Shown: positions 32,834-61,340 of the stretch, piece by piece | Position numbering within the stretch: the first letter of the stretch is position 1 | Layout of the letters: the number at the start of each line of letters is the position of its first letter | Origin: Vicinamibacteria bacterium | Lineage (GTDB): Bacteria; Acidobacteriota; Vicinamibacteria; Vicinamibacterales; JAENWD01 | Assembly (NCBI GenBank): GCA_016650245.1 | Contig: JAENWD010000139.1 | Span: forward strand, 6,082 to 70,081 | Direction: 5' to 3' | DNA: 64,000 nucleotides | The notes under the pieces: model-generated | What the model saw: only the letters and a program-made list of their open reading frames with translations | What the model was told of the DNA's origin: nothing | The model's database searches: none | Position numbers and translations under genes: made by a program

Positions 32834-32892
32834 ATTGCAGATTGCAGACTGCAGATTGACGATTACGGACTATTACGGATTGACGATTGGGT
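32834..32892. repeat. Tandem heptamer array: ATTGCAG ATTGCAG ACTGCAG ATTGACG ATTACGG ... ATTGACG
   Basis: Read directly. It begins 3 nt after the aldehyde DH stop and shares ATTGCAGATTGCAGA and TGCAGATTGACGA blocks with 61260-61286. Confidence 0.85.
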
Positions 32893-33042
32893 CGGCTTCC
32901 TGCGTGCCGTCAACCCGAGCCACACCGGAGCGTTCTCTGGCAAGGGCCTGCTCTAAAGATGCTATGGACATACCTCGACACCAGGCTGGTCTTTCCAACC
33001 GCGAACACGCCGAGCATTCCGACTTATTTCTGAATCATGGGC

Positions 33043-33066
33043 GGACTACGGACTCCAGACTACGGG
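33043..33066. repeat. Tandem heptamer array: GGACTAC GGACTCC AGACTAC
   Basis: Read directly. It ends 4 nt before the stop codon complement of the 33071..36202 gene. The unit is the reverse complement (circular permutation) of the GTCCGTA units at 41338-41365. Confidence 0.8.
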
Positions 33067-33070
33067 TAAT

Positions 33071-36000
33071 TCAGTTCGCCCCCCACTTCGTTCCCTTGAG
33101 GAACGCAAGCAGGTCCGCCAGTTCCTGCCGCGATAGCTGGTCACCGTAGCCGGTGGGCATCACCGACACCGCGCCCGGCTGCATGTCGGCGACCTGCGCT
33201 CGGGGGATGCGGGCTTCCTGCGATTCTCCGATCGTCAGCACCAGTTCGTCCGGGCGTTCCGCCTTGAGCACGCCGCTGTGCACCGCACCGGCTGTGGTGG
33301 TCACCATCAGCGGCTCGTAGCCCCGCACGAAGCTGGCGTTCGGGAACACAATCGCTTCCAGGAGGTCGCGCTCGCTCCGGATCTGGCCGATTGACGTCAG
33401 GTCAGGCCCGAGCTTGCCGCCGCGATACCCGATCGCGTGGCACGACGCACACGCGCCCTTCGGGCTGTTGAAGAGCGACTGTCCGCGCCGGATGTCGCCG
33501 CCTCCGACCATGCCTGCCACGAGCTGATCGAGGCGCTGCGCCTGCTTGACCGAATCCGCTTGAAGCAATGCGAGCAAGGCCTCGCCGCTGGCCTGCACCG
33601 AGGGCGGATACTTCGCCAGACGTGGCCGCAGTACGTCGGGGCGCACATTGGACCGCCCGGGCGCCTGCTCCAGTGCCGCAAGCATCGCCAGGCCCAGGGC
33701 CTCATCGCTGCCCTGATCGAAGGCGGGCAGTATTCGCGGCAGCTCGAGCGGGCCACTGTGTCGCACCAGTTCGACCAGGGCCTGTAACTGATCGCGATCG
33801 AGCCGGGCCTTCTCGACGATGGCGGCGGCAGACGTGCGAAGGGCCACCGGCTGCGAGGGGTCGAGGCTGTCGCGCAGCAACGCGAACAGGTCGGCCTCCA
33901 CCGACGGCAGTCCCTTGCTCAACGATCCGAGCGCCTCGAGCCGGACAGAGGTGGGACGCGACGAGTCGCGTGCGACGCGAAGGAGCGCGGCCTGCAGGTC
34001 GGTTGACGCCGATGGCGACGCCGGCGCCGACCGCGCCACGGCGACGGCGAGTTGCGCGATGTCCGGCTCGCCGCCCGACATCGCGCGTACAAGCGGCGCA
34101 AGCCACGCCTCGGGCAGCTCCTTCACACGCGACGTCGCCATCGCTCGCAACGCCGTTGCGCGCACGTCGTGTGGAGTTGCCGAACCCAGTATGCCCCCAA
34201 GCTGCTGCTGAATGGCCGCGTTGGTGCCAAACTGCGCCAGCCTCTGCTGCAGTTGCTCCTGATCCTCTGCGCGCTGGCCGACTTCAGCCATCCGCTGCTG
34301 GAAGTATCCGGCAAGCGCCACGCCCCAGTCCTGATGGCGCGCGGCGATACGCCACGCCGTGTCGCGCATCTGTTGGTCGGGAGATTCGAGAAGCGCTACG
34401 ACGGTGGCCGCCTGGAGGCCGCCGTTGGGCATCTGGTCGAGCGCGAGCAGCGCCGCGCGCTGAGTCTGCAACGATGAGCTCTTCAGCCCCGCCGAGGTCG
34501 ATTCCGGATCTGCGACCTCGATGAGCGCGTAGGTCACCGAATGCTCGCCCACGCGGTCCAGCGGCAGCGCCGCTGCCGTGAGCAGCGCCGGCACCGCGCG
34601 AGGATCGCCGGTGCGGCCCAGGGCCTCGGCGGCTCCGCGGCGCACCGCGGGTAGACGGGAGCCGAGCGCGTCCAGGAGCTGCGGCGCGGCGTCGGCATCG
34701 CGCCACACACCGACCGAGTGCAACGCGGCGAGCCGAACGCTTTGATCGGCATCGCCGAGGGCGGTACGAACCGCCGCGCGCGCCTCGGTGGTGGCAATTC
34801 GGGTCAGCGCCCAGACCGCGTTGCGTCGCTGCGCAGCCGACCGCCCGGTCGCGACGACGCCATCGAGCGCTGGCACGGCATGGGCCTCGAGTTTCGCGAG
34901 CTGATGAATCGCGCGTCGCTGCACGGCCGGCCGCGCATCGTCGAGGCGCGCGGTCAGCTCGGAGGCCGTCAGTGTGGCCCACGGGATCTTCAGCCCGCGC
35001 GGATCCTGCACCGGCGCAACGCCACGGCGACGGACCCGATAGATCGCGCCGAGCACATCGGGCTTGGCCAGCTGCGAGGTGGGACAACACAGCTTGTACC
35101 ACGCGCCGGTGTCGACGACCAGGAGGCTGCCGTCGGCGTCTTCCAACACGTCGGTCGGATGGAAGTCCAGGCTGTCGGCGACGAGGAAATCGGAATCACG
35201 GCTCTTGAAGGTGGCGCCGCTCGGCTCCAGCACATGGCGGGTCACCTTCTGCATGTTGAACAGGGCCGCGAAGAAGTTGCCGCGGTAGCCCTCGCCAAAC
35301 GTGCGCGAGGCGTACGAGGTCAAGCCCGACACGGCTGCCGGCCCAAGATTGCTGACCGGCGGCATGAGGTCGCCGGTCTGTGGGTGCCCGTCAATCACGC
35401 CATGTGGCTTGCCGAACAGGCCGCCGTAGACCGCATGGATGAACGCGTCGCGCCGACCGAGCTGCGGATGCTCGAGAAACGTCGCCGTGAGCATCGCCTC
35501 GCCGCTGGGCGTGAACGCCACGTCCACCGGGTTGTCCATGCCGCCTGTGATCACCGGCTCCACCAGCGTCTCGCCCGGCCGCCTGCGGAAGATGTGCGCG
35601 GCGCGCGTCACCAGCGGAGGCTTGCCCGGCCGCTCGTACGTCTGCTCGGCAAATGCGCCCTTGGTCCAGTAAATCCACCCGTCGGGCCCGAGATACGGGC
35701 CGTGCAAGTCGTTGGCGCATCCCGTCAGCGTCTTGCCGGCAAACCATTCCTCCCGCCGATCTGCCACGCCGTCGTCGTTGGTATCGGTGAGCTTCCAGAT
35801 GCTGGGCGGAGCTCCCACATAGAGCGACCCATCGAACCACATAGCTCCCTGCGGCAGCATCATGCGGTCGGCAAAGACGACGCTGGTGTCGAAGACGCCG
35901 TCGCCGTCCTTGTCTTCGAGCCGCACAATCCGGTGCGGACGATCGGCGAGCTGCTTTTCCACCTTATCGTTCGTGCCGGACGCATCCGCCACGTACAGCC

Positions 36001-36202
36001 GCCCCTGCTCGTCGAAGTCCGCGACGATGGGCCGATCGACCAGGGGAGGGCCGGCGACGCGCACGACCTCGAAGCCGGCCGGCACGGTGAATTTCGGTTG
36101 CGACGGCGCGACGGTTTCCTGCGCCGCTGGAAGCGCCAGCGCCGACAGCGTCACCGAAAGAACCGCCGCAGCGCGCGTTGAGCGTGGGAGCCGTGAGGTC
36201 AT
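33071..36202 (-). CDS. PVC-type heme-binding CxxCH protein (membrane-bound dehydrogenase-like beta-propeller, HEAT repeats, cytochrome c)
   Basis: N-terminal FTVPAGFEVVRVAGPPLVDRPIVADFDEQGRLYVA (dehydrogenase-domain signature). Central HEAT-like repeats (DQSVRLAALHSVG..., AVRRGAAEALGRTGDPRAVPAL). C-terminal CASCH heme site followed by GPDLTSIG. Confidence 0.85.
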   Translation of the reverse strand: MTSRLPRSTRAAAVLSVTLSALALPAAQETVAPSQPKFTVPAGFEVVRVAGPPLVDRPIVADFDEQGRLYVADASGTNDKVEKQLADRPHRIVRLEDKDGDGVFDTSVVFADRMMLPQGAMWFDGSLYVGAPPSIWKLTDTNDDGVADRREEWFAGKTLTGCANDLHGPYLGPDGWIYWTKGAFAEQTYERPGKPPLVTRAAHIFRRRPGETLVEPVITGGMDNPVDVAFTPSGEAMLTATFLEHPQLGRRDAFIHAVYGGLFGKPHGVIDGHPQTGDLMPPVSNLGPAAVSGLTSYASRTFGEGYRGNFFAALFNMQKVTRHVLEPSGATFKSRDSDFLVADSLDFHPTDVLEDADGSLLVVDTGAWYKLCCPTSQLAKPDVLGAIYRVRRRGVAPVQDPRGLKIPWATLTASELTARLDDARPAVQRRAIHQLAKLEAHAVPALDGVVATGRSAAQRRNAVWALTRIATTEARAAVRTALGDADQSVRLAALHSVGVWRDADAAPQLLDALGSRLPAVRRGAAEALGRTGDPRAVPALLTAAALPLDRVGEHSVTYALIEVADPESTSAGLKSSSLQTQRAALLALDQMPNGGLQAATVVALLESPDQQMRDTAWRIAARHQDWGVALAGYFQQRMAEVGQRAEDQEQLQQRLAQFGTNAAIQQQLGGILGSATPHDVRATALRAMATSRVKELPEAWLAPLVRAMSGGEPDIAQLAVAVARSAPASPSASTDLQAALLRVARDSSRPTSVRLEALGSLSKGLPSVEADLFALLRDSLDPSQPVALRTSAAAIVEKARLDRDQLQALVELVRHSGPLELPRILPAFDQGSDEALGLAMLAALEQAPGRSNVRPDVLRPRLAKYPPSVQASGEALLALLQADSVKQAQRLDQLVAGMVGGGDIRRGQSLFNSPKGACASCHAIGYRGGKLGPDLTSIGQIRSERDLLEAIVFPNASFVRGYEPLMVTTTAGAVHSGVLKAERPDELVLTIGESQEARIPRAQVADMQPGAVSVMPTGYGDQLSRQELADLLAFLKGTKWGAN

Positions 36203-36281
36203 GGAATCCCTGGGCGCGACGACGAGTGTCGCTGATTCCGGGCATTAGATACCAATTGCACGGAGCGGGCAACGCGCCACC

Positions 36282-36650
36282 TCATGGACGTTCGCGCGTC
36301 GACCGCCCAAGGCGCTCGAATTCCGACTGCAGGCGATCGAGTTCCTCGTCGTTCAGGCCTTCCAGGCTGATGAGCTGCGTGCGTGCTCCCACGGTGCTCC
36401 GAATGAGCTCGTCCAACTTCAATTGCAGCGCCCGGCTGTCGCGATTCTGGGTGTTCTGCAGGAGGAAGGCGACCAGGAAGGTGACCTGCGACGCCACCGT
36501 GTTCATGGTGAGCTGCCAGGTATCGGAGAACTGAAAGACCGGCCCGAGGATGAGCCAGACGACCGTCAGCATGACGTTCGCGACAAACGCCCACGGCGAC
36601 CCGATCACCGAAGCGGTCACTTCTGCAACCTGCCGAAACCACGCACCCAT
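36282..36650 (-). CDS. Low-affinity iron permease family protein (PF04120-like)
   Basis: FSDTWQLTMNTVASQVTFLVAFLLQNTQNRDSRALQLKLDELI is the family signature. I chose the internal ATG at 36650, with GGAGG 5 nt upstream. Confidence 0.8.
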   Translation of the reverse strand: MGAWFRQVAEVTASVIGSPWAFVANVMLTVVWLILGPVFQFSDTWQLTMNTVASQVTFLVAFLLQNTQNRDSRALQLKLDELIRSTVGARTQLISLEGLNDEELDRLQSEFERLGRSTRERP

Positions 36651-36666
36651 CGCCACCTCCGGTGGG

Positions 36667-36674
36667 AGTATGCT
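36667..36674. promoter_or_regulatory. AT-rich patch AGTATGCT reading as -10-like hexamers on both strands
   Basis: TATGCT on + (36669-36674, 7 nt before ATG 36682) and CATACT on - (36672-36667, 16 nt before ATG 36650). The divergent starts are only 31 bp apart. Confidence 0.3.
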
Positions 36675-36681
36675 CCTCCCC

Positions 36682-37545
36682 ATGCGTCGACGCGATTTGC
36701 TTTCCAGCCTCGTTGTGCTTCCCGCGCTGGGCAGGGTCGAGCGACTCGAAAACGTCCAGGGCACGGCCAATCGCCCCGGCTTGAAGCTCGGCGCCGTCAC
36801 CTACAACATCGCGAAGGATTGGGATGTTCCGACCCTTATTGCGAACCTCGCGGACGCGCGCTTCGACGCGGTGGAGCTGAGAACGACACATCGGCATGGC
36901 GTCGAGATCTCGCTCTCACCGGCCGCGCGAGTGGACGTCCGCAGGCGGTTCGACGACTCTCCAATCAGGATTGGCGGCCTGGGTACGACCTGCGAGTACC
37001 ACTCCCCTGACCTCGCCGTCGTCCGCAAGAATGTCGATGAGACCAAGGCCTGGGTGCAGCTTGCTCACGACATCGGCTCGCCGTCGGTGAAGGTACGCCC
37101 CAATGGGCTGCCAAAGGACGTCCCGGAGGAGAAGACTCTCGAGCAGATCGGCACAGCGCTCGCCGAGTGTGGCGCGTTTGCCCGCGAGCACGGCGTGACC
37201 GTGGAGCTCGAGGTGCACGGCGAGGGCTCGTCGCGGCTGCCCCGTATCCGCAAGATCCTGGACTACGGCGGGAACCATCCCGGCGTGCGTGTGTGCTGGA
37301 ACTCGAACCCGACGGATCTGCTGGATGGCGGCTTCGACGCGAACTTCGCCCTGGTGCGCGACCAGATCGGCCAGGTCCATATGCGCGACCTGTTCGTCGA
37401 AGACTACCCGTGGCGGCGGTTACTCACATCGCTGGCAGCGATGTCGTTCGAGGGCTACTGCTTCGCGGAGATTCCCGAGTCGCCCGATCCCGTGCGAGTG
37501 TTGAAGTACTTCCGAGCCGTGTTCCGCGCGTACCAAGACTTCTGA
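36682..37545 (+). CDS. Sugar phosphate isomerase/epimerase (TIM barrel) with TAT-type signal
   Basis: MRRRDLLSSLVVLPALG, then FDAVELR...VKVRPNG...ELEVHG pattern. ATG 36682 is preferred and ATG 36670 is possible. Track ORF 36550 overlaps the divergent gene. Confidence 0.8.
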   Translation: MRRRDLLSSLVVLPALGRVERLENVQGTANRPGLKLGAVTYNIAKDWDVPTLIANLADARFDAVELRTTHRHGVEISLSPAARVDVRRRFDDSPIRIGGLGTTCEYHSPDLAVVRKNVDETKAWVQLAHDIGSPSVKVRPNGLPKDVPEEKTLEQIGTALAECGAFAREHGVTVELEVHGEGSSRLPRIRKILDYGGNHPGVRVCWNSNPTDLLDGGFDANFALVRDQIGQVHMRDLFVEDYPWRRLLTSLAAMSFEGYCFAEIPESPDPVRVLKYFRAVFRAYQDF

Positions 37546-37583: not shown

Positions 37584-37673
37584 TGGTGCCGGGGGCGGGA
37601 ATCGAACCCACACGCCTCTTTGGGAGGCCGCGGATTTTAAGTCCGCTGCGTCTGCCAGTTTCGCCACCCCGGC
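37584..37673 (-). tRNA. tRNA-Leu (anticodon UAA), CCA encoded
   Basis: Folded by hand. Acceptor GCCGGGG/CCCCGGC; anticodon stem GCGGA/TCCGC with loop CTTAAAA. Long variable arm GCCTC..GAGGC; T arm GTGGG-TTCGATT-CCCGC; discriminator A plus CCA. Confidence 0.93.
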
Positions 37674-37680: not shown

Positions 37681-37855
37681 GTGCCTGGTGCTCAGTGCTC
37701 AGTGCCAGGTGCGGTGCTGAGTGCCACGTGGTCAGTGCCTGGTGCGCCGAGCACGCAGTCGCCTCAGGCACTCGGCACGTCGCACTCGGCACAAGGCACC
37801 AGGCACATTGGCACCGCACCCAGCACCATGCACCGAGCACTCGGCACTATCAGTG
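37681..37855. repeat. About 170-bp inverted heptamer array: (GTGCNNN) about 10 units, then (GCACNNN) about 12 units
   Basis: Read directly. GTGCCTGGTGC occurs at 37681 and 37735 and its exact complement GCACCAGGCAC at 37796. The arms are imperfectly complementary around a centre near 37755. Confidence 0.85.
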
Positions 37856-38095
37856 GTCCGAGACCTCCGTCCACCCGGCCACGACTAACGGCGACTTCAA
37901 CGCCTCCGCACGCGCCAGCGCGCCGCTCAGGTCGGCGTAGGTCTGGCTGAACAGCAGGTCCGAGCCCTTCTCGATCGCCAGCCAGTAGCCGCTGGGGGGC
38001 TCGACGATGAAGCAGTGGAGATGGTCATCGTGACGGCTGAGACGCCAGAGGGTCACGGCTTCGCCACGCAGACGGATGAGGAGCTGCTCGTTCAT
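37850..38095 (-). CDS. Hypothetical small protein (81 aa)
   Basis: Strong third-position GC. The start lies 5 nt after the upstream ORF's stop. No family recognised. Confidence 0.55.
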   Translation of the reverse strand: MNEQLLIRLRGEAVTLWRLSRHDDHLHCFIVEPPSGYWLAIEKGSDLLFSQTYADLSGALARAEALKSPLVVAGWTEVSDH

Positions 38096-38509: not shown

Positions 38510-38563
38510 CCTACGTACGCCCTACGGACCCGCGTCGCCAGCGCTCCGCCGGGACGCGCACCT

Positions 38564-40702
38564 TCAGCGCCCGAGTTGCTCCCTCAGTGCTTCGGGCGTC
38601 GTCGCCGGCGCCCGGCACGTGAAGTCGGCGCAGAGATACGCGGCCGCCTGTCCCTCGCCAGGCCCCATCGCAGCGACCAGGGGTAACGCTGCACCGAGTG
38701 CGTGCGCGTGGGCTGGCGAGACGGGCACTTCGACCAGAAACGGTCGATAGTGCTCCGCCGCCACCTCGCGCAGTGCAGCAGCCGATTCTGCCCCACCGTC
38801 GGCCTCGACGATAACCAGTTGGCCGATGCCGGCCTCCTCGCCCACCAGCGCCGACAGCACCAGCGGCACCGCGCGCGCGTACTCGCCCAGCCGCGTGCCG
38901 AACCGCGCGATCGAATGGGTGATGCGAGCGGTGCGCTCGGCGTCCGGCGTCAGATGCGTCAGCACCTGCAGATTGAGCAGCGCCAGCGCCGTCGGCGACG
39001 GCTCGGCGCCGTCGTAATCTTCCTTCGACCGGATGAGCACCGTCGGATCTTCACCAGTCGTGCTGAACCAGCCGCCGTCGATCGGATCGTAGAACCGCTG
39101 GTCAAGGACCGACTGCAACCGATCGGCCCAGCGCAGCCACTGGGGGTCGCCGTCGGCCTGGAACAGCTCCAGAAGGCCGAACGTCAGCGCGGCGTAGTCC
39201 TCCGCATAACCGTCCACGGCGGCGTCTCCGTCCCTGAAGCGCCGTAACAGCACCGCGCGATCGTCGTCCCATAATTGGTCGCGCAGGAAACCGGCCGCGC
39301 GTTGCGCCGTCACCAGATGCGCGGCCGCAGTCTCGCGCAGGCCGAACCGGCGTGCGCGCAGCACACGCGCGGCACGCGCGAAGGCCGCGATCATCAAGCC
39401 GTTCCACGCCGCCAGCACCTTGTCATCCAGATGAGGCCGCGGGCGGTCCAGCCGCGCGGCAAACAGCGCGAGGCGCGCATGGGCAAGCGTGTCGGCGACG
39501 TCGTCGGAGGTCCGACCAGTCTGGGCGACGATATCGTCCACCGACGCGGCGGTGTAGAGCAGATTCATCCCGGTGAACTCGCCCTGCGGATCAAACGGGG
39601 CGTTGCCGCCCTCTTCCACGCCAAGGCGGGCCGCCACGACGTCGGCGTCGCTGCCCACCACCTGGCGCAGTTCGCTGGCGCTCCAGGTATAGAAGGCCCC
39701 CTCGACCTTGTGGCCGTGGGGCGGCGCGCCTGGCGGCAGGCTGTCGGCGTCCTCCGCGGAATAGAACCCGCCATCAGGATGCGTCAGCTCGCGGCCCACG
39801 TACTGCAGCGTGTCGTCGGCGACCTGCGCGAAGAACCGGTCGCCGGTGGCTTGCGCGGCTTCGAGGTACGCCAGCACGAGCTGCGCCTGGTCGTACAACA
39901 TCTTCTCGAAATGCGGGACGCGCCAGGCCTCGTCCACCGAGTAGCGGTGAAACCCGCCGCCGACGTGGTCGCGCATACCACCCAGCGCCATCGCGCGCAG
40001 GGCGTGAAGAGCCAGATCGCGAGGCACTGGCTCGTTGGTCCGGGCGTGTTCGCGCAGCAGGAACAGCAGCTCGCTGGGCCGAGGAAACTTCGGTGCGCTG
40101 CCAAAGCCGCCATGCCGTGCGTCGTAGGATTGGGCAAACGAGGCGACGCCGCGCGCCAGCACGTCGGGCGCCGGGGCGGCCGTGCCTCCGGGGCTGGCGG
40201 TCGCCGACTCGCGCATCCGGCGCACCAACTCGGTGGCCGACAGTTCGATCCGCGCGCGCTCGTCGCGCCACGCGCGCGCGATGGCCTGCAGCACTTCGAC
40301 AAACCCAGGCCGGTTGTACCGCGACTCAGGCGGAAAGTATGTGCCGCCGAAAAACGGCTTCAGCTGCGGCGTCAGCCACACGCTCATCGGCCACCCGCCG
40401 GCACCGGTGGTCGCCTGGACGAAAGACATGTAGACGCGGTCCACATCCGGACGCTCTTCGCGGTCGACCTTGATCGACACAAACGACTGGTTGAGGACGT
40501 CGGCCACCGACTCCTGCTCGAACGACTCGTGCTCCATCACGTGGCACCAGTGACAGGTCGAGTAGCCCACCGACAAAAAGATCGGTTTGTCTTCAGCACG
40601 CGCCCGCGCAAAGGCCTCGTCACCCCACGGATACCAGTCCACGGGGTTCTGCGCGTGCTGCAGCAGGTACGGGCTCTTCTCGGCGGCGAGGCGGTTGGGC
40701 AT
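38564..40702 (-). CDS. Thioredoxin-domain protein, YyaL/SPATA20-like (DUF255 plus six-hairpin glycosidase-like domain)
   Basis: [24 protein letters not shown]...[21 protein letters not shown] is the family signature. 712 aa. Confidence 0.88.
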
Positions 40703-40716
40703 GGGAGACCATTATG

Positions 40717-40792
40717 CCTTCTGACTTCTGCCCTCGGCCCTCAGACTCTGCGAATCTGCGGAATCCACCCGAAGGCTGAAGGCCGCAGGCCG
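40717..40792. repeat. Paired short tandem units in a divergent spacer: CTTCTGA CTTCTGC CCTCGGC CCTCAGA ... CTGCGAAT CTGCGGAAT ... GAAGGCT GAAGGCC GCAGGCC
   Basis: Read directly. The left CTTC-units and right GAAGG-units are roughly complementary (CTTCTGACTTC versus reverse complement CTTCAGCCTTC). Confidence 0.75.
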
Positions 40793-40815
40793 ATCCCCCG
40801 TGATATACATCTCCC

Positions 40816-41352
40816 ATGACCGACGAGCAGAAGCCGCGGCGCGTGGCCGTGCTGCTGGAGGACGAGTTCGAAGACAGCGAAGTCACCGGCCCGGTGGAGC
40901 GCCTGCGTGCTGCGGGCCTGGAGGTCGTGCTCGTGGGTCCTCTTGCCGGCCACACCTACACCGGTAAGAAAGGCACAGCCATCGTCGCCGAATTGGCCGC
41001 CGGCAAGGCTCGCGCGCGCGACTTCGATGCGGTCGTCGTGCCAGGCGGACACGCTCCCGATCGCATGCGGATGCGACACGCGATGGTCGATCTGGTGCGC
41101 GACATGATCGCCGCCAACAAGCCCGTGGCCGCGATCTGCCACGGCCCGCAGTTGCTGATCTCGGTCAACGCACTGCGGGGACGGACTGTCACCTGCTGGC
41201 CGTCGATCGCCATCGACGTCAAGAACGCCGGCGGCCTCTACGTTGACAAACCCGTCGTCGTTGACGGCCCCGTGATCACGTCCCGCAAGCCCGATGACAT
41301 CCCCTTCTTCAGCGACGCGATCATCGCCGCGCTGAAAGTCCGTAGTCCGTAG
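40816..41352 (+). CDS. DJ-1/PfpI-family protein (class I glutamine amidotransferase-like)
   Basis: VVVPGGHAP and AAICHGPQLL (nucleophile elbow Cys-His) motifs. 178 aa. Confidence 0.88.
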   Translation: MTDEQKPRRVAVLLEDEFEDSEVTGPVERLRAAGLEVVLVGPLAGHTYTGKKGTAIVAELAAGKARARDFDAVVVPGGHAPDRMRMRHAMVDLVRDMIAANKPVAAICHGPQLLISVNALRGRTVTCWPSIAIDVKNAGGLYVDKPVVVDGPVITSRKPDDIPFFSDAIIAALKVRSP

Positions 41353-41365
41353 TCCGCAGTCCGTG
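41338..41365. repeat. Tandem heptamer array: GTCCGTA GTCCGTA GTCCGCA GTCCGTG
   Basis: Read directly. It encodes the last residues (VRSP) and the TAG stop of the DJ-1/PfpI gene and fills most of the 22-nt spacer to the next ATG. Confidence 0.85.
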
Positions 41366-41374: not shown

Positions 41375-42316
41375 ATGCGCATCGGCATCGACCTGGGCGG
41401 CACCAAGATCGAAGGGATCGTGCTCGACGACACCGGCGCGGTCCGCTTTCGGGAGCGACGCGCCACGCCCCGCGGCGACTACGACGGCACAATCGAGGCC
41501 TTGGTCGATCTGGTCGCGGCGGCGGAGATGGCCATCGGCCACACAGCCACCGTCGGCATCGGCATGCCCGGCGCGATCTCACCGGCGACTGGCATGGTGA
41601 AAAACGCGAACTCCACGTGGCTGATCGGCCGGACGCTCGACCGCGATCTGGAAGCGCGCCTCGGGCGGCCCGTGCGGCTCGCCAACGACGCCAACTGCTT
41701 CGCGCTGTCAGAGGCCAGTGACGGCGCCGCCGCGGGCGCCCCGGTGGTGTTTGGCGTGATCGTCGGCACCGGATGCGGCGGCGGCGTGGTCGTGCACGGG
41801 CACGTGCTTACCGGACCCAACGCGATCGCCGGCGAATGGGGCCACAATCCTCTGCCGTGGCCCGCGGCCGACGAGCTGCCGGGGCCAGAGTGCTACTGCG
41901 GCAAGCGCGGTTGCCTCGAGACGTACCTTTCGGGCCCGGGCCTTGCCCGCGACTACGCCGCGTGCGCCGGGGTCGACCCCACCAAAATCAAAGGCGCCAC
42001 CGTCGTCGCCTGCGCCGCCGCTGGCGACCGCCATGCCATCGCGGCCCTCGATCGCTACGCGCATCGGCTCGCGCGAGGACTGGCCACCGTTATCAACACG
42101 ATCGACCCCGACGTGATCGTGCTGGGCGGCGGTGTGTCAAACGTCACGATGCTGTACGACGCCGTGCCACGCTGGCTCGACCAGTTCGTCTTCTCTGATC
42201 ACGTCGCGACGCGGATCGTGCCCCCGATGCACGGGGATTCCAGCGGCGTCCGCGGGGCGGCGTGGCTGTGGCCCCAGGGTCATCAGGCCACAGGCCTCGA
42301 GTCGCCGGGGCGCTAG
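41375..42316 (+). CDS. ROK-family sugar kinase (fructokinase/Mak- or NagK-like)
   Basis: MRIGIDLGGTKIE, LANDANCFALSE, GTGCGGG, GEWGH and zinc motif CYCGKRGCLE. Confidence 0.88.
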   Translation: MRIGIDLGGTKIEGIVLDDTGAVRFRERRATPRGDYDGTIEALVDLVAAAEMAIGHTATVGIGMPGAISPATGMVKNANSTWLIGRTLDRDLEARLGRPVRLANDANCFALSEASDGAAAGAPVVFGVIVGTGCGGGVVVHGHVLTGPNAIAGEWGHNPLPWPAADELPGPECYCGKRGCLETYLSGPGLARDYAACAGVDPTKIKGATVVACAAAGDRHAIAALDRYAHRLARGLATVINTIDPDVIVLGGGVSNVTMLYDAVPRWLDQFVFSDHVATRIVPPMHGDSSGVRGAAWLWPQGHQATGLESPGR

Positions 42317-42340
42317 CCTCAGGCCTCAGGCGCAGCTCAG
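42316..42340. repeat. Heptamer array GCCTCAG GCCTCAG GCGCAG CTCAG between convergent stops
   Basis: Read directly. It starts at the last base of the ROK TAG and includes the TCA (TGA complement) stop of the yihY-like gene. Confidence 0.8.
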
Positions 42341-43272
42341 GGCGAAAGCGGCGGCGCTGCCGGCGCCTGGTCGGTGCGGCCGCGTCGGATACGGCTGTAG
42401 GCAGCCGTGAACTCAACGCCGTACAGCAGGATCACCGCCGACACGTACACCCACAAGAGGAAGACGATCACGGCACCGATCGATCCGTGCACGCTGAAGC
42501 GCGACATATCGCGCACATACCATGAGAAGCCCGCAAAGGCGGACCGCCACAGCAGGCCCGTCATCACCGCCCCGACCCAGACGTCGCGGAAGCGCACCTT
42601 CGCGTTGGGCACGAAGTAGAACACCAGCCCGACGGCCAGAATCAGCCCGAAGGTTGCCGCCCAGCTCACCCCGAAACCCCGCAGCTCCATCAACCACGGA
42701 AACCGCCCCGCCACCGTCGCAAACCACGAGGCGCCAACCACCTGGCTTGCGCTGAACACCACCAGCGTCAGCGCCAGCAGGCCGCACGATGCGGCCAGCA
42801 TCAGAAACGCGACGAGCTTGTGCTTGAGATAGCTCCGCTGCCGTTCGACGCGCCACGCGCTGTTGACAGTCGTGCTGACCGCGCTGAAGAAACCCAGCGA
42901 TGCCCAGGTGAGTGCCACCCCGCCCATCACGCCCAGGGGAACCTGCGTGCGCTGGATCGCGGTGATCTGGGCGCTGACGAACTCGAGGCGCGTGGGAAAG
43001 TACCGCAGCACGAAGTCCAGCGTGGCCCGCCGCGCCTGCTCGTCCTCGGTGAATGAGCCGAGCACCGACACCACGAGCAGGAGGAAGGGAAACAGCGAGA
43101 GGAGCGCGTAGTAGGCGATCGACGCCGAGTGCGTGAGGTCGTCGCTGTTGTAAAAGCTGGTGAACCCGCGCCATGCCGCCCGCGCCGACAGCGACACGAC
43201 ACGGCGCGCGCGCCCGGCCAGCGCCCCGACCCACCGGCGCTGGTGGGCTCGTCGTGGGAAATGTCCCGTCAT
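42337..43272 (-). CDS. YihY/BrkB (ribonuclease BN-like) family membrane protein
   Basis: SASIAYYALLSLFPFLLL... and six TM segments. I chose the internal ATG at 43272; the upstream track codons are Arg-rich. Confidence 0.8.
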   Translation of the reverse strand: MTGHFPRRAHQRRWVGALAGRARRVVSLSARAAWRGFTSFYNSDDLTHSASIAYYALLSLFPFLLLVVSVLGSFTEDEQARRATLDFVLRYFPTRLEFVSAQITAIQRTQVPLGVMGGVALTWASLGFFSAVSTTVNSAWRVERQRSYLKHKLVAFLMLAASCGLLALTLVVFSASQVVGASWFATVAGRFPWLMELRGFGVSWAATFGLILAVGLVFYFVPNAKVRFRDVWVGAVMTGLLWRSAFAGFSWYVRDMSRFSVHGSIGAVIVFLLWVYVSAVILLYGVEFTAAYSRIRRGRTDQAPAAPPLSP

Positions 43273-43291: not shown

Positions 43292-43531
43292 TCAGCGCGT
43301 GGCCGATCGCGACGCGACGTCGCGTGCCGCCTGCCCACTCTGGCGGGCGGCAGCCTGCAGGCGTCTGGCCGACGACGACAGCGCCATCGCCTGGCTGGCC
43401 AGGTCCTGCAGCCGTGGCTCGAGCCGCGCCCGCACCCGGCGACCATCATCGGTGAGCCACAGCCATCCGGCGACCCCGCCGGCGACCCCGCCGGCCACCA
43501 GGCCGATCAACACCGCCGTCCGATCACGCAC
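43292..43531 (-). CDS. YtxH-like small membrane-anchored protein (79 aa)
   Basis: My own reading of the C-terminal part of track ORF 43292..43855. GTG 43531 gives VRDRTAVLIGLVAGGVAGGVAGWLWL followed by a helical Arg/Ala/Gln tail. It overlaps the response-regulator stop by 8 nt. Confidence 0.5.
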   Translation of the reverse strand: MRDRTAVLIGLVAGGVAGGVAGWLWLTDDGRRVRARLEPRLQDLASQAMALSSSARRLQAAARQSGQAARDVASRSATR

Positions 43532-49251: not shown

Positions 49252-49252
49252 C

Positions 49253-54491: not shown

Positions 54492-54519
54492 GCCTCAGGC
54501 CTCAGGCCTCGGGCCTCAC
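54492..54519. repeat. Tandem heptamer array GCCTCAG GCCTCAG GCCTCGG GCCTCAC between convergent stops
   Basis: Read directly. The last unit contains the TCA (TGA complement) stop of the NHL-type gene. The unit is the same as at 42316-42340. Confidence 0.85.
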
Positions 54520-55592
54520 ACCTTCCGCAGTTTCGTCACCCGTCCGACCTCGACCCATTCGACCACGAAGATGTTGCCGGCGCGATCGAAGGTCGCGCCG
54601 TGCGGGCACACGAACTTGCCGACCGGGAAGCCCTCGCGCGGCCCCGTGCGCAGCGCCTTCCACGAGTCTGGCCCGTTGTCGCCCAGCTCGGCGACAACCG
54701 CGTTCCTGCGATCCACGAGCGTGACCTTCGCAAACAGGTCGGGCACGACCATGACGCCCTGGTGCTCGCTGAAGTGGCAGGGGTGCGGAAAGCCCTCGTC
54801 AAAACCCTGATGTGTGCCGTCGAGCGAGAAGCGCTGCAGCCGGCGATTGCTGCGATCGGCGACCAGGATCACGGGCGTTGCCGTGCGCGTGTCGACGATG
54901 AGACCATGCGGGCAATCCAACTGGCCCGCCGCCGTGCCCTTGCCTCCGAACGTGCGCAGGTACTTGCCCGAGGCGTCGTACTGGTTGATATAGCTCGACC
55001 CATAGCCGTCGCCGACGTAGACATCGCCATTGGGCGCCACGGCGACGTTGGTCGGCGAGTACTTCACGCCAGGCGTCCCATCGGCGTTCACCGGATACTG
55101 CGCCGACTCTTTCGGGTAGCCGAGCTGCCAGACGACCTCACCTGCCGGGGTCACCTTTGTGACGGTGCCCCGCTTGGTGTCGCACAGGATGAGAAACTCC
55201 TGTTTCCCTTCGCGCACGATGTGGAGGCCGTGCGCGCCGCCTTCGAACTCTTTGCCCCAACTGCGCACGAAACGGCCCTTGGCATCGAAGACCACCATCG
55301 TGTCGTGCCGATCGCTTGACGCGTGCACCGTGTGATGCACGTAGATGCGGCCCTGCGCGTCTTCGGCGACCCCGTGCGTGTTGCCGTACTTGAGCCCGGC
55401 CGGCAATTCCCCCCAGTCGTGGTAGACCTCATAGGTGAACTCGCCGCTGCCGATGACGGGCCGCTTGGCGCCGGCCTTGTGGGTCGCGTGCAACAGCGTA
55501 GGACCGGCCACTGACACGGCCAGGCCGGTGCCGATCGCGCCAAAGAACTCGCGGCGGGTCGGGCGTGACGACGGATGTGACGAGCGGCTCAT
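54516..55592 (-). CDS. NHL-repeat / six-bladed beta-propeller protein with TAT-type signal
   Basis: SRPTRREFFGAIGTGLAV signal. Repeated ...G.IYV.D...G..., PHGL and VADRSNRRLQRF motifs. I chose ATG 55592, with AAGGAG 5 nt upstream. Confidence 0.8.
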   Translation of the reverse strand: MSRSSHPSSRPTRREFFGAIGTGLAVSVAGPTLLHATHKAGAKRPVIGSGEFTYEVYHDWGELPAGLKYGNTHGVAEDAQGRIYVHHTVHASSDRHDTMVVFDAKGRFVRSWGKEFEGGAHGLHIVREGKQEFLILCDTKRGTVTKVTPAGEVVWQLGYPKESAQYPVNADGTPGVKYSPTNVAVAPNGDVYVGDGYGSSYINQYDASGKYLRTFGGKGTAAGQLDCPHGLIVDTRTATPVILVADRSNRRLQRFSLDGTHQGFDEGFPHPCHFSEHQGVMVVPDLFAKVTLVDRRNAVVAELGDNGPDSWKALRTGPREGFPVGKFVCPHGATFDRAGNIFVVEWVEVGRVTKLRKV

Positions 55593-55653
55593 GAGGGCTC
55601 CTTGCGCGCTAATGTTACGGCCAAGGCGGCCGCCTATCAAGTTACGACCGACG

Positions 55654-56322
55654 ATGCCAACGATCGAACGTCTGCCCACACCTGTCGGGGTGCTCACGGT
55701 CGTCACGAACCCACACACGCTGCTGGCGATTCACTTTGGCGACGCACCTGGTCTCGCCGCCTCATCCGACACGCCGTCGCCGCTGCATGAGGACGTCCGC
55801 GTGCGGCTTGCCGCTTACTTCGACGGCGATCGGACAGCGATCGACGAGATCCCCGTCGAGCCGGGTGGCACGCCTTTCCAGCGCCAGGTGTGGCTGATGC
55901 TCCGCCGCATCCGCGCGGGCACCACGTGGAGCTACCGCCAACTGGCCGAGCGTGTGGATCGCCCCGCCGCCGTTCGCGCCGTGGGAGCGGCCAACGGCGC
56001 CAATCCGATTCCGATCGTCCTGCCCTGTCATCGTGTCGTCGGCAGCGACGGGCGGCTCGTGGGCTACGGCGGTGGGATGGAGCGCGCTCGTGGCGTGGTA
56101 GAGTCCGCGACATGTCGAGGGTTGTTGCCGCCGCGCTCTGCGTCGTGTTCGTCCCTGCGCTCGTGCATACCCAGGCACCGGCGGGAGTCACCGCCACGCC
56201 GGCGCCAGTCTTCACCGATGCGGCGCGCCGCGAAAGGCTGGCAGGCGCCTTCGCGGCAATCCGCGAGAGCATGCCCGAGGCCGCCAAACAGATCGGCGCA
56301 CCGGGCCTGGCGTGGGGAGTGA
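55654..56322 (+). CDS. ogt: Methylated-DNA--protein-cysteine methyltransferase; 3' end doubtful
   Basis: TPFQRQVW...SYRQLAE...AVRAVGAANGANPIPIVLPCHRVVGSDGRLVGYGGGMERARGVVE. After this the frame runs 66 more Arg/Pro/Ser-rich codons into the next gene. Confidence 0.8.
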   Translation: MPTIERLPTPVGVLTVVTNPHTLLAIHFGDAPGLAASSDTPSPLHEDVRVRLAAYFDGDRTAIDEIPVEPGGTPFQRQVWLMLRRIRAGTTWSYRQLAERVDRPAAVRAVGAANGANPIPIVLPCHRVVGSDGRLVGYGGGMERARGVVESATCRGLLPPRSASCSSLRSCIPRHRRESPPRRRQSSPMRRAAKGWQAPSRQSARACPRPPNRSAHRAWRGE

Positions 56323-57962: not shown

Positions 57963-58017
57963 CTACTCGCCGGGTGCTTCAGGCGCGTCAGGTGCGTCGT
58001 GCGGTAAGATTTCCAAG

Positions 58018-58413: not shown

Positions 58414-58414
58414 G

Positions 58415-58608: not shown

Positions 58609-58652
58609 CGAGTGATTGTACAGGCTGCGCCAATCGGATACCATCCCAGCCC

Positions 58653-60314
58653 ATGCGCGCTTGCATGTGGATAGTCGCCCTGGCCCTGGTCGCCGCGCCG
58701 TCTCGACACGTGGTCGCCCGTGAGGGCAGTACCGGTGCCGCCGCTGACCCGCGTGCTCGCGCCGAGCGCTTCGAGCGTGCCGTCGGCGCAGCCGACCGGG
58801 TGTTGCGCGCCTGGCTGGCCGAGGCCGACCCAAAGACGCTGTTGCTACCGGACCGGCTCACCGGCCCCGGTGACGGACGCGCCGTGGGCAACCGCACCCG
58901 CGAGTACACGCCGCACAACTCCGGCGCCGATCTGTATCCGTACCTTATTCTCACCGCGCACCTGACGGCGCCCGATCTGCTCGACGGCCGTCTGCTCGAG
59001 ATGCTGCGCAACGAAGTGCGCTACACGACGTCCTCCGAGCGCGGGGTGCCAGGCGCACTGAATCTGGACACGGGAGTCGCCGGCCCGCCAAGTTTGTTCG
59101 GTGCCGGCGAGTACGCCAAAGACGGGCTGATCACCGTCACCGAGTACCTGGGCCGGACCGCGTGGTACGCCCGCATGGTGGACATGATCGCCGACGCCAT
59201 GACGCTGGGCCCGGTCGATTCCCGCTTCGGCAAGCTGCCGGCGTCCGACTCGGAACTCAACGGCGACTACCTGCAAGTGCTGCCCCGCCTGGCACTGATG
59301 ACCGGCGACGACCGCTTTCTCGACTGGGGACGCCGGATCGCCGACGCGTACATCGACGAGGTGTTGCCCGGCAGCCACGGCGTGCCCAGCGGCCAGTGGA
59401 ATTTCACGACGCACAAAGGCGATGGCACGCTTCGACTCCGCGATCACGGCAACGAGCTGGTGGTCGGCCTGGTGCTCCAGTACGCGCTCGAGCACTACAA
59501 GCAGACGCCTCGCGCAGCGAAGTGGAGGCCGGTCATCGCGCGCATGCTCGACCGCATCCTCGCATCCGCCAATCCCGACGGCCTGCTCTACAACATCGTC
59601 GACACCGAGACGCTCACGCCGAAGACCGACCGGCTGTCGGACAACTGGGGCTACATCTATGGCGCCGTCTATACCTTCTATCAATGCACCGGGGAGACGC
59701 GCTACAAGGACGCGGTGGTGCGCGTGCTGCGCAACCTGCCGAAGTACCGCAACTACGTGTGGGAGCCGCGCAACATCCCCGATCTGCCGCTGGGGTCGTT
59801 TGACGGCTACGCGGACACGATCGAAAGTGCCATCTACCTGGTGAACCGCGAGCCCGTGCCCGAGGCCCTGGGCTGGATCGAATCCGAAATGGATGTGTTG
59901 CTGAACATGCAGCGTCCCGACGGGCACTTCGAGTACTGGTACGGCGAGGGCAACTTCAATCGCACCGCCCTGCTCTACGCGCTCATGCAGAGCCGAGGCG
60001 TACGCCCGGCCGTGTGGCAGCACGGCGTCGGCATCGGGGCCGTATCTGAGGGTGACGGCCTTCGGCTCCACGTGAAGGCGCCCGCCCCGTTGCGCGTGCA
60101 GTTCGACTACGCGCGGCACCGGCGTGTGATGAACTTCGATCGCAACTACGTGCGTCTCAACGAGTTTCCCGAGTGGTTCGTCGTTGACGACAACACGCGC
60201 TACGACCTGCGCCCGGAAGGCGGCGGCGCCACCATGCAGCGGCTCGGCGCGGAGTTGATCCGGGGGATCACACTGTCGCCTGGCGAGTGGATCGTGTCGC
60301 CTGTAGGCGACTGA
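58653..60314 (+). CDS. Secreted hypothetical protein (553 aa), possibly an alpha/alpha-toroid enzyme-like fold
   Basis: Signal peptide and good codon bias. The recurrent aromatic/Gly motifs (NWGYIYGAVYTFY, DGHFEYWYGEGNFNRTALLYAL) remind me of six-hairpin glycosidase-like proteins, but I cannot name a family. Confidence 0.65.
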   Translation: MRACMWIVALALVAAPSRHVVAREGSTGAAADPRARAERFERAVGAADRVLRAWLAEADPKTLLLPDRLTGPGDGRAVGNRTREYTPHNSGADLYPYLILTAHLTAPDLLDGRLLEMLRNEVRYTTSSERGVPGALNLDTGVAGPPSLFGAGEYAKDGLITVTEYLGRTAWYARMVDMIADAMTLGPVDSRFGKLPASDSELNGDYLQVLPRLALMTGDDRFLDWGRRIADAYIDEVLPGSHGVPSGQWNFTTHKGDGTLRLRDHGNELVVGLVLQYALEHYKQTPRAAKWRPVIARMLDRILASANPDGLLYNIVDTETLTPKTDRLSDNWGYIYGAVYTFYQCTGETRYKDAVVRVLRNLPKYRNYVWEPRNIPDLPLGSFDGYADTIESAIYLVNREPVPEALGWIESEMDVLLNMQRPDGHFEYWYGEGNFNRTALLYALMQSRGVRPAVWQHGVGIGAVSEGDGLRLHVKAPAPLRVQFDYARHRRVMNFDRNYVRLNEFPEWFVVDDNTRYDLRPEGGGATMQRLGAELIRGITLSPGEWIVSPVGD

Positions 60315-61230
60315 GCAGGTCGGACATGTCGGGCGGCAACGGCGACTCGAGACGGATCGTGCGTCCCGTGACCGGGTGTTCGAAAGACAGCTTCCACGCG
60401 TGCAATGCTTGTCGCGGAAACGAGATCCGCCTGGCCATCGGGGCGTCGGCGTACATCGTCTCTCCGACCAGCGGATGACCTCTCAGTTCCGCCTGCAGCC
60501 GGATCTGATTGCGCTTACCCGTTACCAGCCGTACTTCGACGAGCGAGGCGCCCCGCAGCCGCTGCACGACGCGGTACTCGCTCAGTGCCTCTTTGCCCCG
60601 GGGGTCGCGCGCGCTGGTGGCACGCTGAATCAGTTCCTCGCCATCCCAGACCAGATGGTCACGCCAGGCGCCCGCCTCCGGCGTCAGGTGTCCGTGCACG
60701 ATCGCCTGATAGACACGCTCAGGTTCGCGACGGAGAAACTGCCCTTTCAGGTGCGCCAGCGTAGCGCCGTCTTTGGCGAACATCACCAGACCTGACGTGT
60801 CCCGATCGATCCGGTGCACGACCTGTGGGCGACGCTTGCCCTGCGATCGCAGGTGAGCCTCGACCAGTTCGAGCAACGAGCTGGCCTGGCCACGCCGTCT
60901 CAGCGGCACCGCCAGCAACCCCGGCGGCTTGTCGACGACCAGCAGCGACGGGTCTTCGTACACCACGACCAGGTCGCCCTCGTGCCGGGTCCGCGCGCGC
61001 ACGGCGCGGCCGCTCCCGGGCCGATCCATCCACACACGCACGACATCACCATCGGCCAGGACCAACGCCGCGTCGGCGGTCTCGGCCTCGCGGTCGTTGA
61101 CGAAGACCTTCCCCCGGTCGATCGCAACGGTCGCCTTCGAGCGCGAGCCCAACCGGTCGGGCGCCGCCAGAAACTTGTCGAGCCGAATGCCCGAATCCTC
61201 AGTAGCGGCCGTCCAGCGTCGGTCGGACAT
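60268..61230 (-). CDS. rluD: RluA-family 23S rRNA pseudouridine synthase (RluD-like) with an S4 domain
   Basis: S4-like N-terminus (RLDKFLA), catalytic HRIDRDTSGLV and GKRNQIRLQ. The 3' end overlaps the convergent gene by 47 nt. Confidence 0.88.
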   Translation of the reverse strand: MSDRRWTAATEDSGIRLDKFLAAPDRLGSRSKATVAIDRGKVFVNDREAETADAALVLADGDVVRVWMDRPGSGRAVRARTRHEGDLVVVYEDPSLLVVDKPPGLLAVPLRRRGQASSLLELVEAHLRSQGKRRPQVVHRIDRDTSGLVMFAKDGATLAHLKGQFLRREPERVYQAIVHGHLTPEAGAWRDHLVWDGEELIQRATSARDPRGKEALSEYRVVQRLRGASLVEVRLVTGKRNQIRLQAELRGHPLVGETMYADAPMARRISFPRQALHAWKLSFEHPVTGRTIRLESPLPPDMSDLLSRLQATRSTRQATV

Positions 61231-61249
61231 GGAGGCGATTAGACAGACG

Positions 61250-61340
61250 ATTGCAGATCATTGCAGATTGCAGATTGACGACTACGAAGCGTCGGGTTGC
61301 ACCCCGGCGGTCCGTAATCGGCAATCGGCAATCGTCATTG
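61250..61340. repeat. Inverted heptamer arrays: ATTGCAG x3 plus ATTGACG, then CGGCAAT x2 (complement ATTGCCG)
   Basis: Read directly. Left arm GATTGCAGATTGCAGATT against right arm AATCGGCAATCGGCAATC (18 positions, 2 mismatches). The right end contains the stop (TCA) of the 61335..61703 gene. Confidence 0.85.

Follow-up and report, generated by a model that had tools for sequence, protein, structure and literature searches.

Tandem heptanucleotide arrays at gene ends in a Vicinamibacterales chromosome and the hairpins formed by opposed arrays

What are the runs of 7-nt units that occupy spacers in an acidobacterial chromosome, how do they arise, and do they act on the genes beside them? We addressed these questions in a stretch of 64,000 nucleotides from a Vicinamibacteria bacterium (assembly GCA_016650245.1, contig JAENWD010000139.1, forward-strand positions 6,082 to 70,081), here called the window and numbered from its first letter. 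Heptanucleotide repeats have been noted in bacteria since 1990, in the form of short tandemly repeated repetitive (STRR) sequences, and neither the reason for a 7-nt unit nor a function has been established for them. A preliminary description, made from the letters of the window, had placed tandem heptamers in eight spacers between 32.8 and 61.3 kb. We found that the 7-nt periodicity is genuine, that the arrays lie in spacers or in a gene's last five codons without exception, and that they turn over between relatives. At three loci, opposed arrays fold into hairpins, and at one of these, beside a tRNA-Leu gene, the hairpin site is conserved while the length of its arms varies. The best matches of the window are Vicinamibacterales, phylum Acidobacteriota, in agreement with the acidobacterial origin proposed for it, and its GC content of 65-72% is that of an ordinary chromosome.

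Tandem Repeats Finder and a lag scan of our own recovered period-7 arrays at every locus of the preliminary description, with the units listed there. The array extents were 32834-32858 (continuing to about 32890), 33042-33065, 37688-37848, 40717-40793 (weak, with 2-3.6 copies per unit type), 41337-41364, 42316-42331 (2.3 copies only), 54492-54518, and 61250-61277 with 61316-61334. The loci in full, together with the tRNA gene, are as follows.

32832-32890, plus strand: ATTGCAG x3, ATTGACG, ATTACGG, ACT, ATTACGG, ATTGACG and ATTGGG, of the AYTRCRG family; follows the aldehyde dehydrogenase TGA stop directly; lacks an inverted partner and does not fold significantly (z -1.05)
33030-33074, minus strand: GGACTAC x3.4 at 33042-33065, read as GTAGTCC on the gene strand; enclosed by a basal stem of 8 bp (33030-33037 with 33067-33074), of which the TGA stop of the DUF7133/HEAT/cytochrome c gene is a part
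37584-37673, minus strand: tRNA-Leu(UAA), its 5' end 7 nt from the large hairpin
37681-37848, minus strand: as read on the plus strand, about 11 copies of GTGCNNN opposed by about 12 of GCACNNN, GCCTCAG being central; occupies the whole spacer from the stop of an open reading frame (ORF) of 81 amino acids (aa) to tRNA-Leu
40712-40800, minus strand: CTTCTGA, CTTCTGC, CCTCGGC and CCTCAGA (40717-40744) facing CCGAAGG, CTGAAGG and CCGCAGG (40769-40793), in the divergent DUF255 / DJ-1/PfpI spacer; the minus-strand version would fall within the DUF255 5' leader
41337-41364, plus strand: AGTCCGT x4, ending 10 nt ahead of the start codon of the ROK kinase gene; fold not significant (z 0.34)
42316-42342, no strand assigned: GCCTCAG x2.3 and a degenerate GCTCAGG unit, unstructured, filling the 20-nt convergent spacer from the ROK TAG stop to the BrkB-like TGA stop
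54492-54518, no strand assigned: GCCTCAG x3.9 within a convergent spacer of 37 nt; the last, degenerate unit includes the stop of the NHL-repeat gene on the minus strand; no significant fold
61250-61334, minus strand: hairpin of three parts that runs directly from the stop of a 122-aa ORF to a point 19 nt ahead of the pseudouridine synthase start; arm one (61250-61286) is ATTGCAG, ATC, ATTGCAG, ATTGCAG, ATTGACG, ACTACGA; the core (61290-61309) is the GC-rich stem-loop CGTCGGG-TTGCAC-CCCGGCG; arm two (61310-61334) is GTCCGTA, ATCGGCA, ATCGGCA, ATCG

The signal was compared with 20 shuffles in which dinucleotide frequencies were approximately preserved. At a lag-scan score of at least 12, three period-7 arrays were found against 0.0 in the shuffles, and each other period not divisible by three gave zero arrays. 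At a score of at least 10 there were six arrays, every one in a spacer or at a gene 3' end. Counted in all rotations and on both strands, the unit heptamers were 30-100 times denser within arrays than elsewhere. Beyond the arrays, coding and non-coding DNA contained them at an equally low density; the signal therefore lies in their tandem arrangement and not in the words themselves. Seven array ends contain a stop codon or stand 0-5 nt from one, so that the arrays do hug gene ends, as first noted. The convergent spacer of 239 nt at 32832-33070 carries one array against each stop codon and an array-free middle. The count of eight spacers has to be lowered to seven, since the arrays at 32834 and 33043 share this spacer, and they are far from most of the second-half spacers, at about 7 of 24. 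A strong lag-7 signal was present in 5 of the 20 second-half spacers of at least 25 nt and in two shorter ones. The 16 spacers of this minimum length within 1-32.8 kb all lacked it, and no arrays had been seen there before either. The contrast between the halves (0/16 vs 5/20; one-sided Fisher about 0.04, computed by hand) is marginal, and we give it no interpretation. Among 160 related loci from many phyla, period 7 was again dominant among non-triplet periods (22 and 27 arrays vs 1-7 for periods 4, 5, 8, 10, 11 and 13), and the arrays were concentrated in Acidobacteriota and Verrucomicrobiota.

Three of the loci consist of opposed arrays that fold into hairpins. The largest, at 37681-37848, forms 65 bp with a minimum free energy (MFE) of -116.9 kcal/mol on the transcribed minus strand (z -8.3) vs -107.8 kcal/mol on the antisense strand. 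At 61250-61334, where heptamer arms lengthen the GC-rich core stem-loop, the MFE was -44.2 kcal/mol (z -4.8), and 0 of 200 shuffles were equally stable. The imperfect hairpin at 40712-40800 reached -48.1 kcal/mol on the minus strand (z -2.6) and -34.8 kcal/mol on the plus strand. The loops of the three are mutually unrelated. The preliminary description had recorded the opposed units at 37.7 and 61.3 kb correctly; what it missed is that they form hairpins, the feature that is conserved at the tRNA-Leu site. Of 8 hairpins at the 3' ends of genes, 7 were more stable when folded from the sense strand than from the antisense strand, which lends weak support to a structure at the RNA level. At 37681-37848 and 61250-61334 a GC-rich stem-loop stands directly 3' of a gene, as in an intrinsic terminator. 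No U-tract follows any array stem, the sequences after these two being GACGUUGGCC and UCUGUCUAAUCG. A terminator-pattern scan of 32-44 kb found no canonical U-tract terminators, with terminator-like matches at chance level and none at an array, and a promoter scan of the same interval gave zero sigma-70-like sites. Short GC hairpins occur at some array-free gene ends.

We compared orthologous spacers in ten related loci that share the gene order found at 33-50 kb of the window (L081, L161-L166, L167-L169 and L170; L005 is more distant), in which the flanking genes are about 81-92% identical to those of the window at the protein level. The same tRNA gene is present in L161, L165, L166, L168 and L169. 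In L161, L165, L166 and L168 it lies on the minus strand beside an ORF of 81-82 aa, as in the window; in L169 it lies about 1.9 kb from the small ORF, on the opposite strand. Among relatives, the hairpin at this orthologous site has arms of about 2 up to about 13 units. L168 has a plain GC-rich hairpin and L161 a 44-nt spacer with about two GTGC/GCAC units. The arms hold about 5-6 units in L165 (-111 kcal/mol, z -6.9), about 11-12 in the window and about 13 each in L166 (-180.5 kcal/mol, z -15.7). The conserved feature of the site is thus the hairpin, and the number of units in its arms varies. The order of units is common to the window and L166 arms (score 33 vs 20.1 +/- 3.2 in permutations, 0 of 200 as high), and both include an odd 5-nt unit, GCACC. 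The tRNA-Leu array was therefore inherited rather than acquired convergently. Permutation tests gave no significant sign that the two arms of the window's large hairpin are colinear copies of each other; these arms pair through family-level complementarity only. The L166 arms are colinear (z -4.0 in one test, 5.5 in another).

The neighbourhood of this tRNA gene is itself variable. MgtE and tRNA-Leu are adjacent in L168 (5672-6867) and about 100 nt apart in L169, with the tRNA on the opposite strand. The window has about 6.3 kb between the two genes (31263-37545), holding the aldehyde dehydrogenase, the DUF7133/HEAT/cytochrome c protein, small ORFs and a protein of AP-endonuclease-2 fold. The DUF7133 block is also present in L165, and the pattern resembles variable gene content beside a tRNA gene.

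At the other spacers the gene order is shared and the arrays are hypervariable, coming and going over about 10% protein divergence. Genomes with flanking genes about 85-90% identical may have an array there, no array, or one made of another unit. The DUF255/DJ-1 spacer holds CTTCTGA units facing GAAGGCY in the window, GGACTGC units facing GCAGTCT in L166, and eleven direct GCACNNN units in L165; it has no array in L081, L161, L170, L167, L168 or L169. At the DUF7133 stop, the same flanks, with their 8-bp stem, hold (GGACTAC)n in the window and the complement of (ATTGCAG)n in L166. The 41337 array, in the DJ-1/ROK spacer, is absent from the relatives. The 42316 array at the ROK end is absent in L081, L161 and L165 and is essentially specific to the window. 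L170, the closest relative in DJ-1 (92% identity), has no arrays. The more distant L005, also of the Vicinamibacterales, has three elements in the order stop codon, array, loop and inverted array. A search for the window units as arrays in 160 other loci gave no real matches; the units are therefore lineage-specific.

The units recur at unlinked loci and are intermixed, as the preliminary description had stated for GCCTCAG at 37758, inside the 37.7-kb array, and TACGGAC at 32865, inside the 32.8-kb array. Three unlinked pairs of loci share an identical unit, against about 0.09 expected from a null rate derived from unit clustering. They are ATTGCAG at 32834 and 61260, GGACTAC/GTCCGTA at 33043 and 41337 (GTCCGTA being a rotation of the complement of GGACTAC, as had been said), and GCCTCAG at 42316 and 54492. 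Clustering of units across loci at up to one mismatch was uninformative (75 observed, 42 expected, null maximum 72), since the null is high once any rotation and both strands are admitted. We relied on the sharing of identical units alone; the related contigs L145, L150 and L156 inflate the cross-locus excess of 16 vs 2.3. The families AYTRCRG, GTGCNNN and CYTCNGN recur over loci and genomes. L166 and L165 carry the window's families at the same and at other spacers, so the window is no local exception. The loci resemble one another in their heptamer units only, and no similarity extends into the flanks. The GTGCNNN units divide clearly into a 4-nt core that is invariant and three positions that are free: the GTGC/GCAC core is spaced exactly 7 nt in 34 of 45 gaps, and the pattern persists even in the array that the window and L166 have both inherited. 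The conserved core and the shared repertoire leave room for a sequence-specific factor.

Several other loci carried repeats of a related kind. In L145, elements of about 80 nt at 265-344, 2550-2631 and 3532-3614 have the form (GGGATCN)4, a loop of about 25 nt and (GATCCCN)4. They also occur in L150 and L156; all three are metagenome contigs of GC 0.64, densely packed with such elements. The loops of the L145 elements are alike, which therefore identifies a dispersed palindrome with heptamer arms, like the repetitive extragenic palindromic (REP) sequences. The GGGATCN unit, found in L145 and L001, is close to the Xanthomonas unit GGGAATC. L006, an Acidobacteria metagenome-assembled genome, has a perfect (AGTTGTC)12 at 809-895, whose complement is of the CAACTGA type, one base from TAACTGA. 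In L168 a hairpin at the ROK 3' end (11410-11530; MFE -70.7 kcal/mol) has arms of 8-10-nt repeats (CACAGAG / CTCTGTG); its arms are built of repeats as in the window, but the period is not 7. L002, labelled 'uncultured Bifidobacteriaceae', has a GC content of 0.68, an array of three GGAGTTG units and a DUF255 protein 58% identical to that of the window, and looks like a mis-binned or mislabelled Vicinamibacterales contig.

How might such arrays arise, and what might they do? We give about an even chance to the explanation that they are heptanucleotide simple-sequence repeats (SSRs) grown by slippage, of which the opposed pairs serve as terminators without a U-tract or as 3' stabilisers and the single arrays are by-products. 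On this account, arrays would grow, shrink and be replaced unit by unit in non-coding DNA, mostly just past stop codons. The likely cause would be replication slippage, with the unexplained 7-nt preference that other bacteria also show. A small GC-rich stem-loop with opposed arrays on its two sides would have its stem lengthened by them, and complementarity of the arms may in some cases be kept up by template switching across the hairpin. The paired arrays would be transcribed within the 3' end of the upstream gene and act as 3'-end hairpins, which would stop transcription without a U-tract, block 3' exonucleases, or both. At 37.7 kb the hairpin would remain as the mRNA 3' end after RNase P removes tRNA-Leu. 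The unpaired arrays at 32834, 33043, 41337, 42316 and 54492 would most likely be tolerated by-products or half-elements. The arrays are likely to mark transcript ends in genomes without U-tract terminators.

A number of observations weigh against this explanation. Those five loci, of eight, have no inverted partner or significant fold. No strain-level copy-number variants were found, and L161-L164, which are one species, have no arrays in the part that they share. In the window's large hairpin, the complementarity of the two arms does not exceed that of arms with permuted unit order (z -1.2 and z -0.8). The bias toward the sense strand shrinks to 5 of 6 independent cases when shared ancestry is taken into account, which is few, and one hairpin (L005, 7199) strongly favours the antisense fold. 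About 48 of 52 GTGC cores are intact while positions 5-7 carry only 0.2-0.7 bits, a statistic that is partly circular in that the units were anchored on the core; neutral slippage does not predict this contrast. Nor does it predict the shared unit repertoire. Finally, over about 40 nt the variant units stand in the same order in the unlinked segments 32834-32870 and 61250-61286 (ATTGCAG, ATTGCAG, AYTGCAG, ATTGACG, AYTACGR).

The intact cores and the free positions 5-7 are what one would expect of periodic binding sites. In this alternative, which we regard as possible though unlikely, a factor covering about 7 nt per subunit or domain recognises the core, and selection keeps the cores and a limited set of units; examples would be a cold-shock-domain, S1 or KH protein on RNA or a nucleoid protein on DNA. 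The exact 7-nt spacing of GTGC/GCAC, even in the inherited array, the fixed and free positions of the AYTRCRG family and the unit families common to unlinked loci and different genomes all agree with it. The Xanthomonas units likewise conserve positions 1-4 and 6, and Csp, S1 and CsrA have been proposed as binders of TAACTGA repeats (PMC4679880). However, at least three unrelated unit families in one genome would need several factors or a very loose specificity. The units are also wholly different between related genomes (L005 and L001 vs the window), the orientation is inconsistent (the sense strand reads TACGGAC at 32865 but GTCCGTA at 33043 and 41337), the core statistic has the circularity noted above, and no candidate protein was found. 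A broader proposal is that a sequence-specific process shared by Acidobacteriota, Verrucomicrobiota, Xanthomonas and cyanobacteria writes or reads the arrays, which would then not be passive products of slippage. Candidates are a factor that measures 7 nt together with a 4-nt core (GUGC/GCAC), or the copying of units from a genome-wide repertoire to stop-proximal hairpins. We consider this proposal doubtful; if it were true, the length of hairpins at transcript 3' ends could be tuned, and they would evolve fast. Together with unit families incapable of G-quadruplexes, the series of lengths beside tRNA-Leu and the 4+3 units make a slippage origin of the period testable against a sequence-reading one.

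The variant-unit order shared over about 40 nt by 32834-32870 and 61250-61286 also bears on dispersal, in which the arrays are copies of small mobile or recombining palindromes, similar to REP sequences and bacterial interspersed mosaic elements (BIMEs) or to miniature inverted-repeat transposable elements, copied by a REP-associated tyrosine transposase (RAYT) or by ectopic gene conversion. The exchanged cassette at the DUF7133 stop and the similar loops of the several L145 copies fit such copying, as does a weak resemblance in unit order between the L165 DUF255-spacer array and a tRNA-Leu hairpin arm (1 of 200 permutations as high). Yet no similarity runs past the arrays into the flanks, no target-site duplications were seen, and there are no terminal inverted repeats beyond the arrays themselves. 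The hairpin loops in the window are unrelated, a scan of 30 window proteins revealed no transposase, although a RAYT elsewhere in the genome is conceivable, and the tRNA-Leu length series looks like growth in place; we therefore rate dispersal as rather improbable. We see very little prospect for contingency loci, in which the copy number would switch expression of a neighbour by phase variation, as with short SSRs of host-adapted pathogens. This process is well established for SSRs, the pair at 40712-40800 lies in a divergent promoter and 5'-leader spacer, and 41337-41364 alters a protein C-terminus. However, most arrays stand past stops or between convergent genes, where their length cannot shift a frame or promoter spacing, their neighbours are housekeeping or metabolic genes, and the lineage was recovered from soil and environmental metagenomes. 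Non-B DNA, such as the G-quadruplex (G4) proposed for Xanthomonas and Nostoc, or an assembly artefact is the least credible of the explanations. Xanthomonas heptamer arrays form G4 in vitro and long palindromes could extrude as cruciforms, but the window units have no GGG tracts, which excludes G4 formation by them, and comparable arrays occur in independent assemblies from JGI, ENA and NCBI. A GC-rich soil phylum with several G4-incapable families removes G4 as a general explanation.

Gene boundaries in the window were taken from a codon-usage caller built for it, and the start codons are approximate. The genes near the arrays are listed below.

31263-32831, plus strand: aldehyde dehydrogenase, TGA stop
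33071-36154, minus strand: DUF7133/HEAT/cytochrome c protein, TGA stop
37850-38095, minus strand: 81-aa ORF
38564-40702, minus strand: DUF255 thioredoxin-domain protein
40816-41352, plus strand: DJ-1/PfpI
on either side of the 42316 array, convergent: ROK kinase (TAG stop) and BrkB-like protein (TGA stop)
54516-55718, minus strand: NHL-repeat protein
60268-61230, minus strand: pseudouridine synthase
61335-61703, minus strand: 122-aa ORF

Further genes around the arrays include a sigma-54 activator, a leucine-catabolism cluster and others, and the spacers with arrays include convergent, co-directional and divergent types. The Rfam search proposed earlier returned, at gathering thresholds, the tRNA as the sole match in the window and no array family. 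A clustered regularly interspaced short palindromic repeat (CRISPR) array was rejected, as the units are of 7 nt and contiguous, vs repeats of 24-48 nt with unique spacers, and Rfam gave the tRNA only. An integron attC site was rejected on anatomy.

The arrays also shift annotated gene ends and starts. The AGTCCGT array encodes the final five codons of DJ-1/PfpI (tail KVRSP) and its TAG stop (41335-41352). The KVRSP tail is found in the window only, the homologues ending in AALARA, AALAG, AALAR or AALNRE; a non-coding repeat has therefore rewritten the C-terminus of a protein. In L165 (9900-9982) the automatic call extends the DUF255 protein to 749 aa vs 712 aa in the window. This extension runs through the direct (GCACNNN)11 array, which is almost certainly 5' leader; such arrays can therefore cause annotation errors.

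Other features of these spacers were observed. The motif CGTGATATACATC (or GTGATATACAY) at 40798-40810 is conserved 3-8 nt upstream of the DJ-1/PfpI start. It is kept in the window and at least six relatives, including L081 (about 683-695), L161, L165 and L166 (about 9982-9996) and L170 (606-617), while the remaining spacer is unalignable. It is probably a -10-like promoter element of a leaderless or nearly leaderless DJ-1/PfpI mRNA, and it may be bidirectional and serve the divergent DUF255 gene too. In the array-free spacer 3' of DUF255 (38520-38545, minus strand), GGGTCCGTAGGGCGTACGTAGG is possibly a decayed trace of GTCCGTA and lies beside an ordinary hairpin, GCCGGAACTTTAGTTCCGGC. Tandem repeats of other periods were also present. 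A 12-nt repeat, CCGGCGACCCCG x2.8 (95% matches), lies at 43467-43499, in a spacer or N-terminal region upstream of the BrkB-like gene and outside the heptamer family. An in-frame 9-nt repeat, TCGCCCTAC x5.8, lies at 61941-61992 in the signal-peptide region (..APLALLALLALPALA..) of a DUF2911/TPR protein.

How do these arrays compare with known systems? REP sequences and BIMEs, like the 'I-shaped' terminators of GC-rich bacteria that have no U-tract, are extragenic imperfect palindromes at 3' ends; they have been proposed as terminators or mRNA stabilisers and are hypervariable between relatives. Each REP family has one conserved sequence of 20-40 nt and an associated RAYT (Y1) transposase. The window hairpins differ in that their stems consist of tandem heptamers and that the hairpins at 37.7, 40.7 and 61.3 kb have no sequence or consensus in common. 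The STRR sequences of heterocystous cyanobacteria reportedly have the units CCCCAGT, TTGGTCA and CAACAGT, as Mazel et al. are said to have described in 1990. They are like the window arrays in having several heptanucleotide units per genome, in tandem, dispersed in non-coding DNA and with an unexplained function. However, their units, phylum and AT-richer genomes are different, and inverted pairing and stop-codon abutment are not defining for them.

In bacteria at large, an excess of heptanucleotide SSRs, the dominant class of long SSRs, has been recognised since Mrazek, Guo and Shah in 2007 and attributed to polymerase slippage. As cited in two later papers, this survey names Burkholderia, cyanobacteria, Actinobacteria and Xanthomonas (PMC4679880, PMC4692102). 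Prokaryotic long SSRs are described there as head-to-tail units of 5-11 nt, with 7 nt dominant, mainly intergenic, in scattered lineages that include GC-rich soil and plant bacteria. The window has their features: tandem copies beyond those of shuffles, dominance of 7 nt among non-triplet periods and a non-coding location. TAACTGA direct repeats occur in marine Beggiatoaceae, cyanobacteria and Bacteroidetes; according to MacGregor 2015, they lie mostly just upstream of start codons, and one inverted example is reported (PMC4679880). Geobacter metallireducens has the heptanucleotide elements GGACCGG and MTYCTGA, of which GGACCGG also occurs inside genes (PMC2700814). The window shares with the Beggiatoaceae and Geobacter short intergenic arrays of 2-6 copies with a genome-specific unit, and CYTCTGA-like units (CTTCTGA in the window, TTCTGAA in L005) resemble MTYCTGA and TAACTGA. 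The window has no TAACTGA arrays, and its arrays abut stops, that at 40712-40800 alone lying in a 5' leader.

We found no paper that joins heptanucleotide repeats and Acidobacteria, in line with the preliminary description, which knew of none, and a 2025 tree-of-life survey of short tandem repeats makes no mention of heptamers or Acidobacteriota. The phenomenon is thus a known, functionally unexplained kind of repeat in a phylum for which no description was found. Among the described systems, Rehm et al. 2015 reported heptamer repeats with the units GGGAATC in Xanthomonas and GGGGA(C/T)T in Nostoc (PMC4692102). In Xanthomonas, 70-75 of about 185 arrays, typically of 2-4 or more units, stand in inverted pairs capable of forming stem-loops (PMC4692102). 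The arrays lie at most 50 bp from a stop codon or overlap it, are rare between divergent genes and are transcribed; their length and presence differ between sister species, and their units have conserved and free positions (PMC4692102). The Xanthomonas and Nostoc units are G-tract units that form quadruplexes, with essentially one dominant family per genome. In contrast, the window units (ATTGCAG, GTCCGTA, GCCTCAG, GTGCNNN and CTTCTGA) do not follow GGGNATC or GGGGAYT; they belong to at least three G4-incapable families (AYTRCRG, GTGCNNN and CYTCNGN), and one hairpin reaches about 65 bp. The window and Xanthomonas share inverted pairs (3 of 8 loci in the window), proximity to stop codons, turnover between relatives and a GC-rich genome. 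The STRR sequences, put forward at first as the closest system, are a fair analogy, but the Xanthomonas GGGAATC arrays have more features in common with those of the window (PMC4692102) and appear to be the closest analogy.

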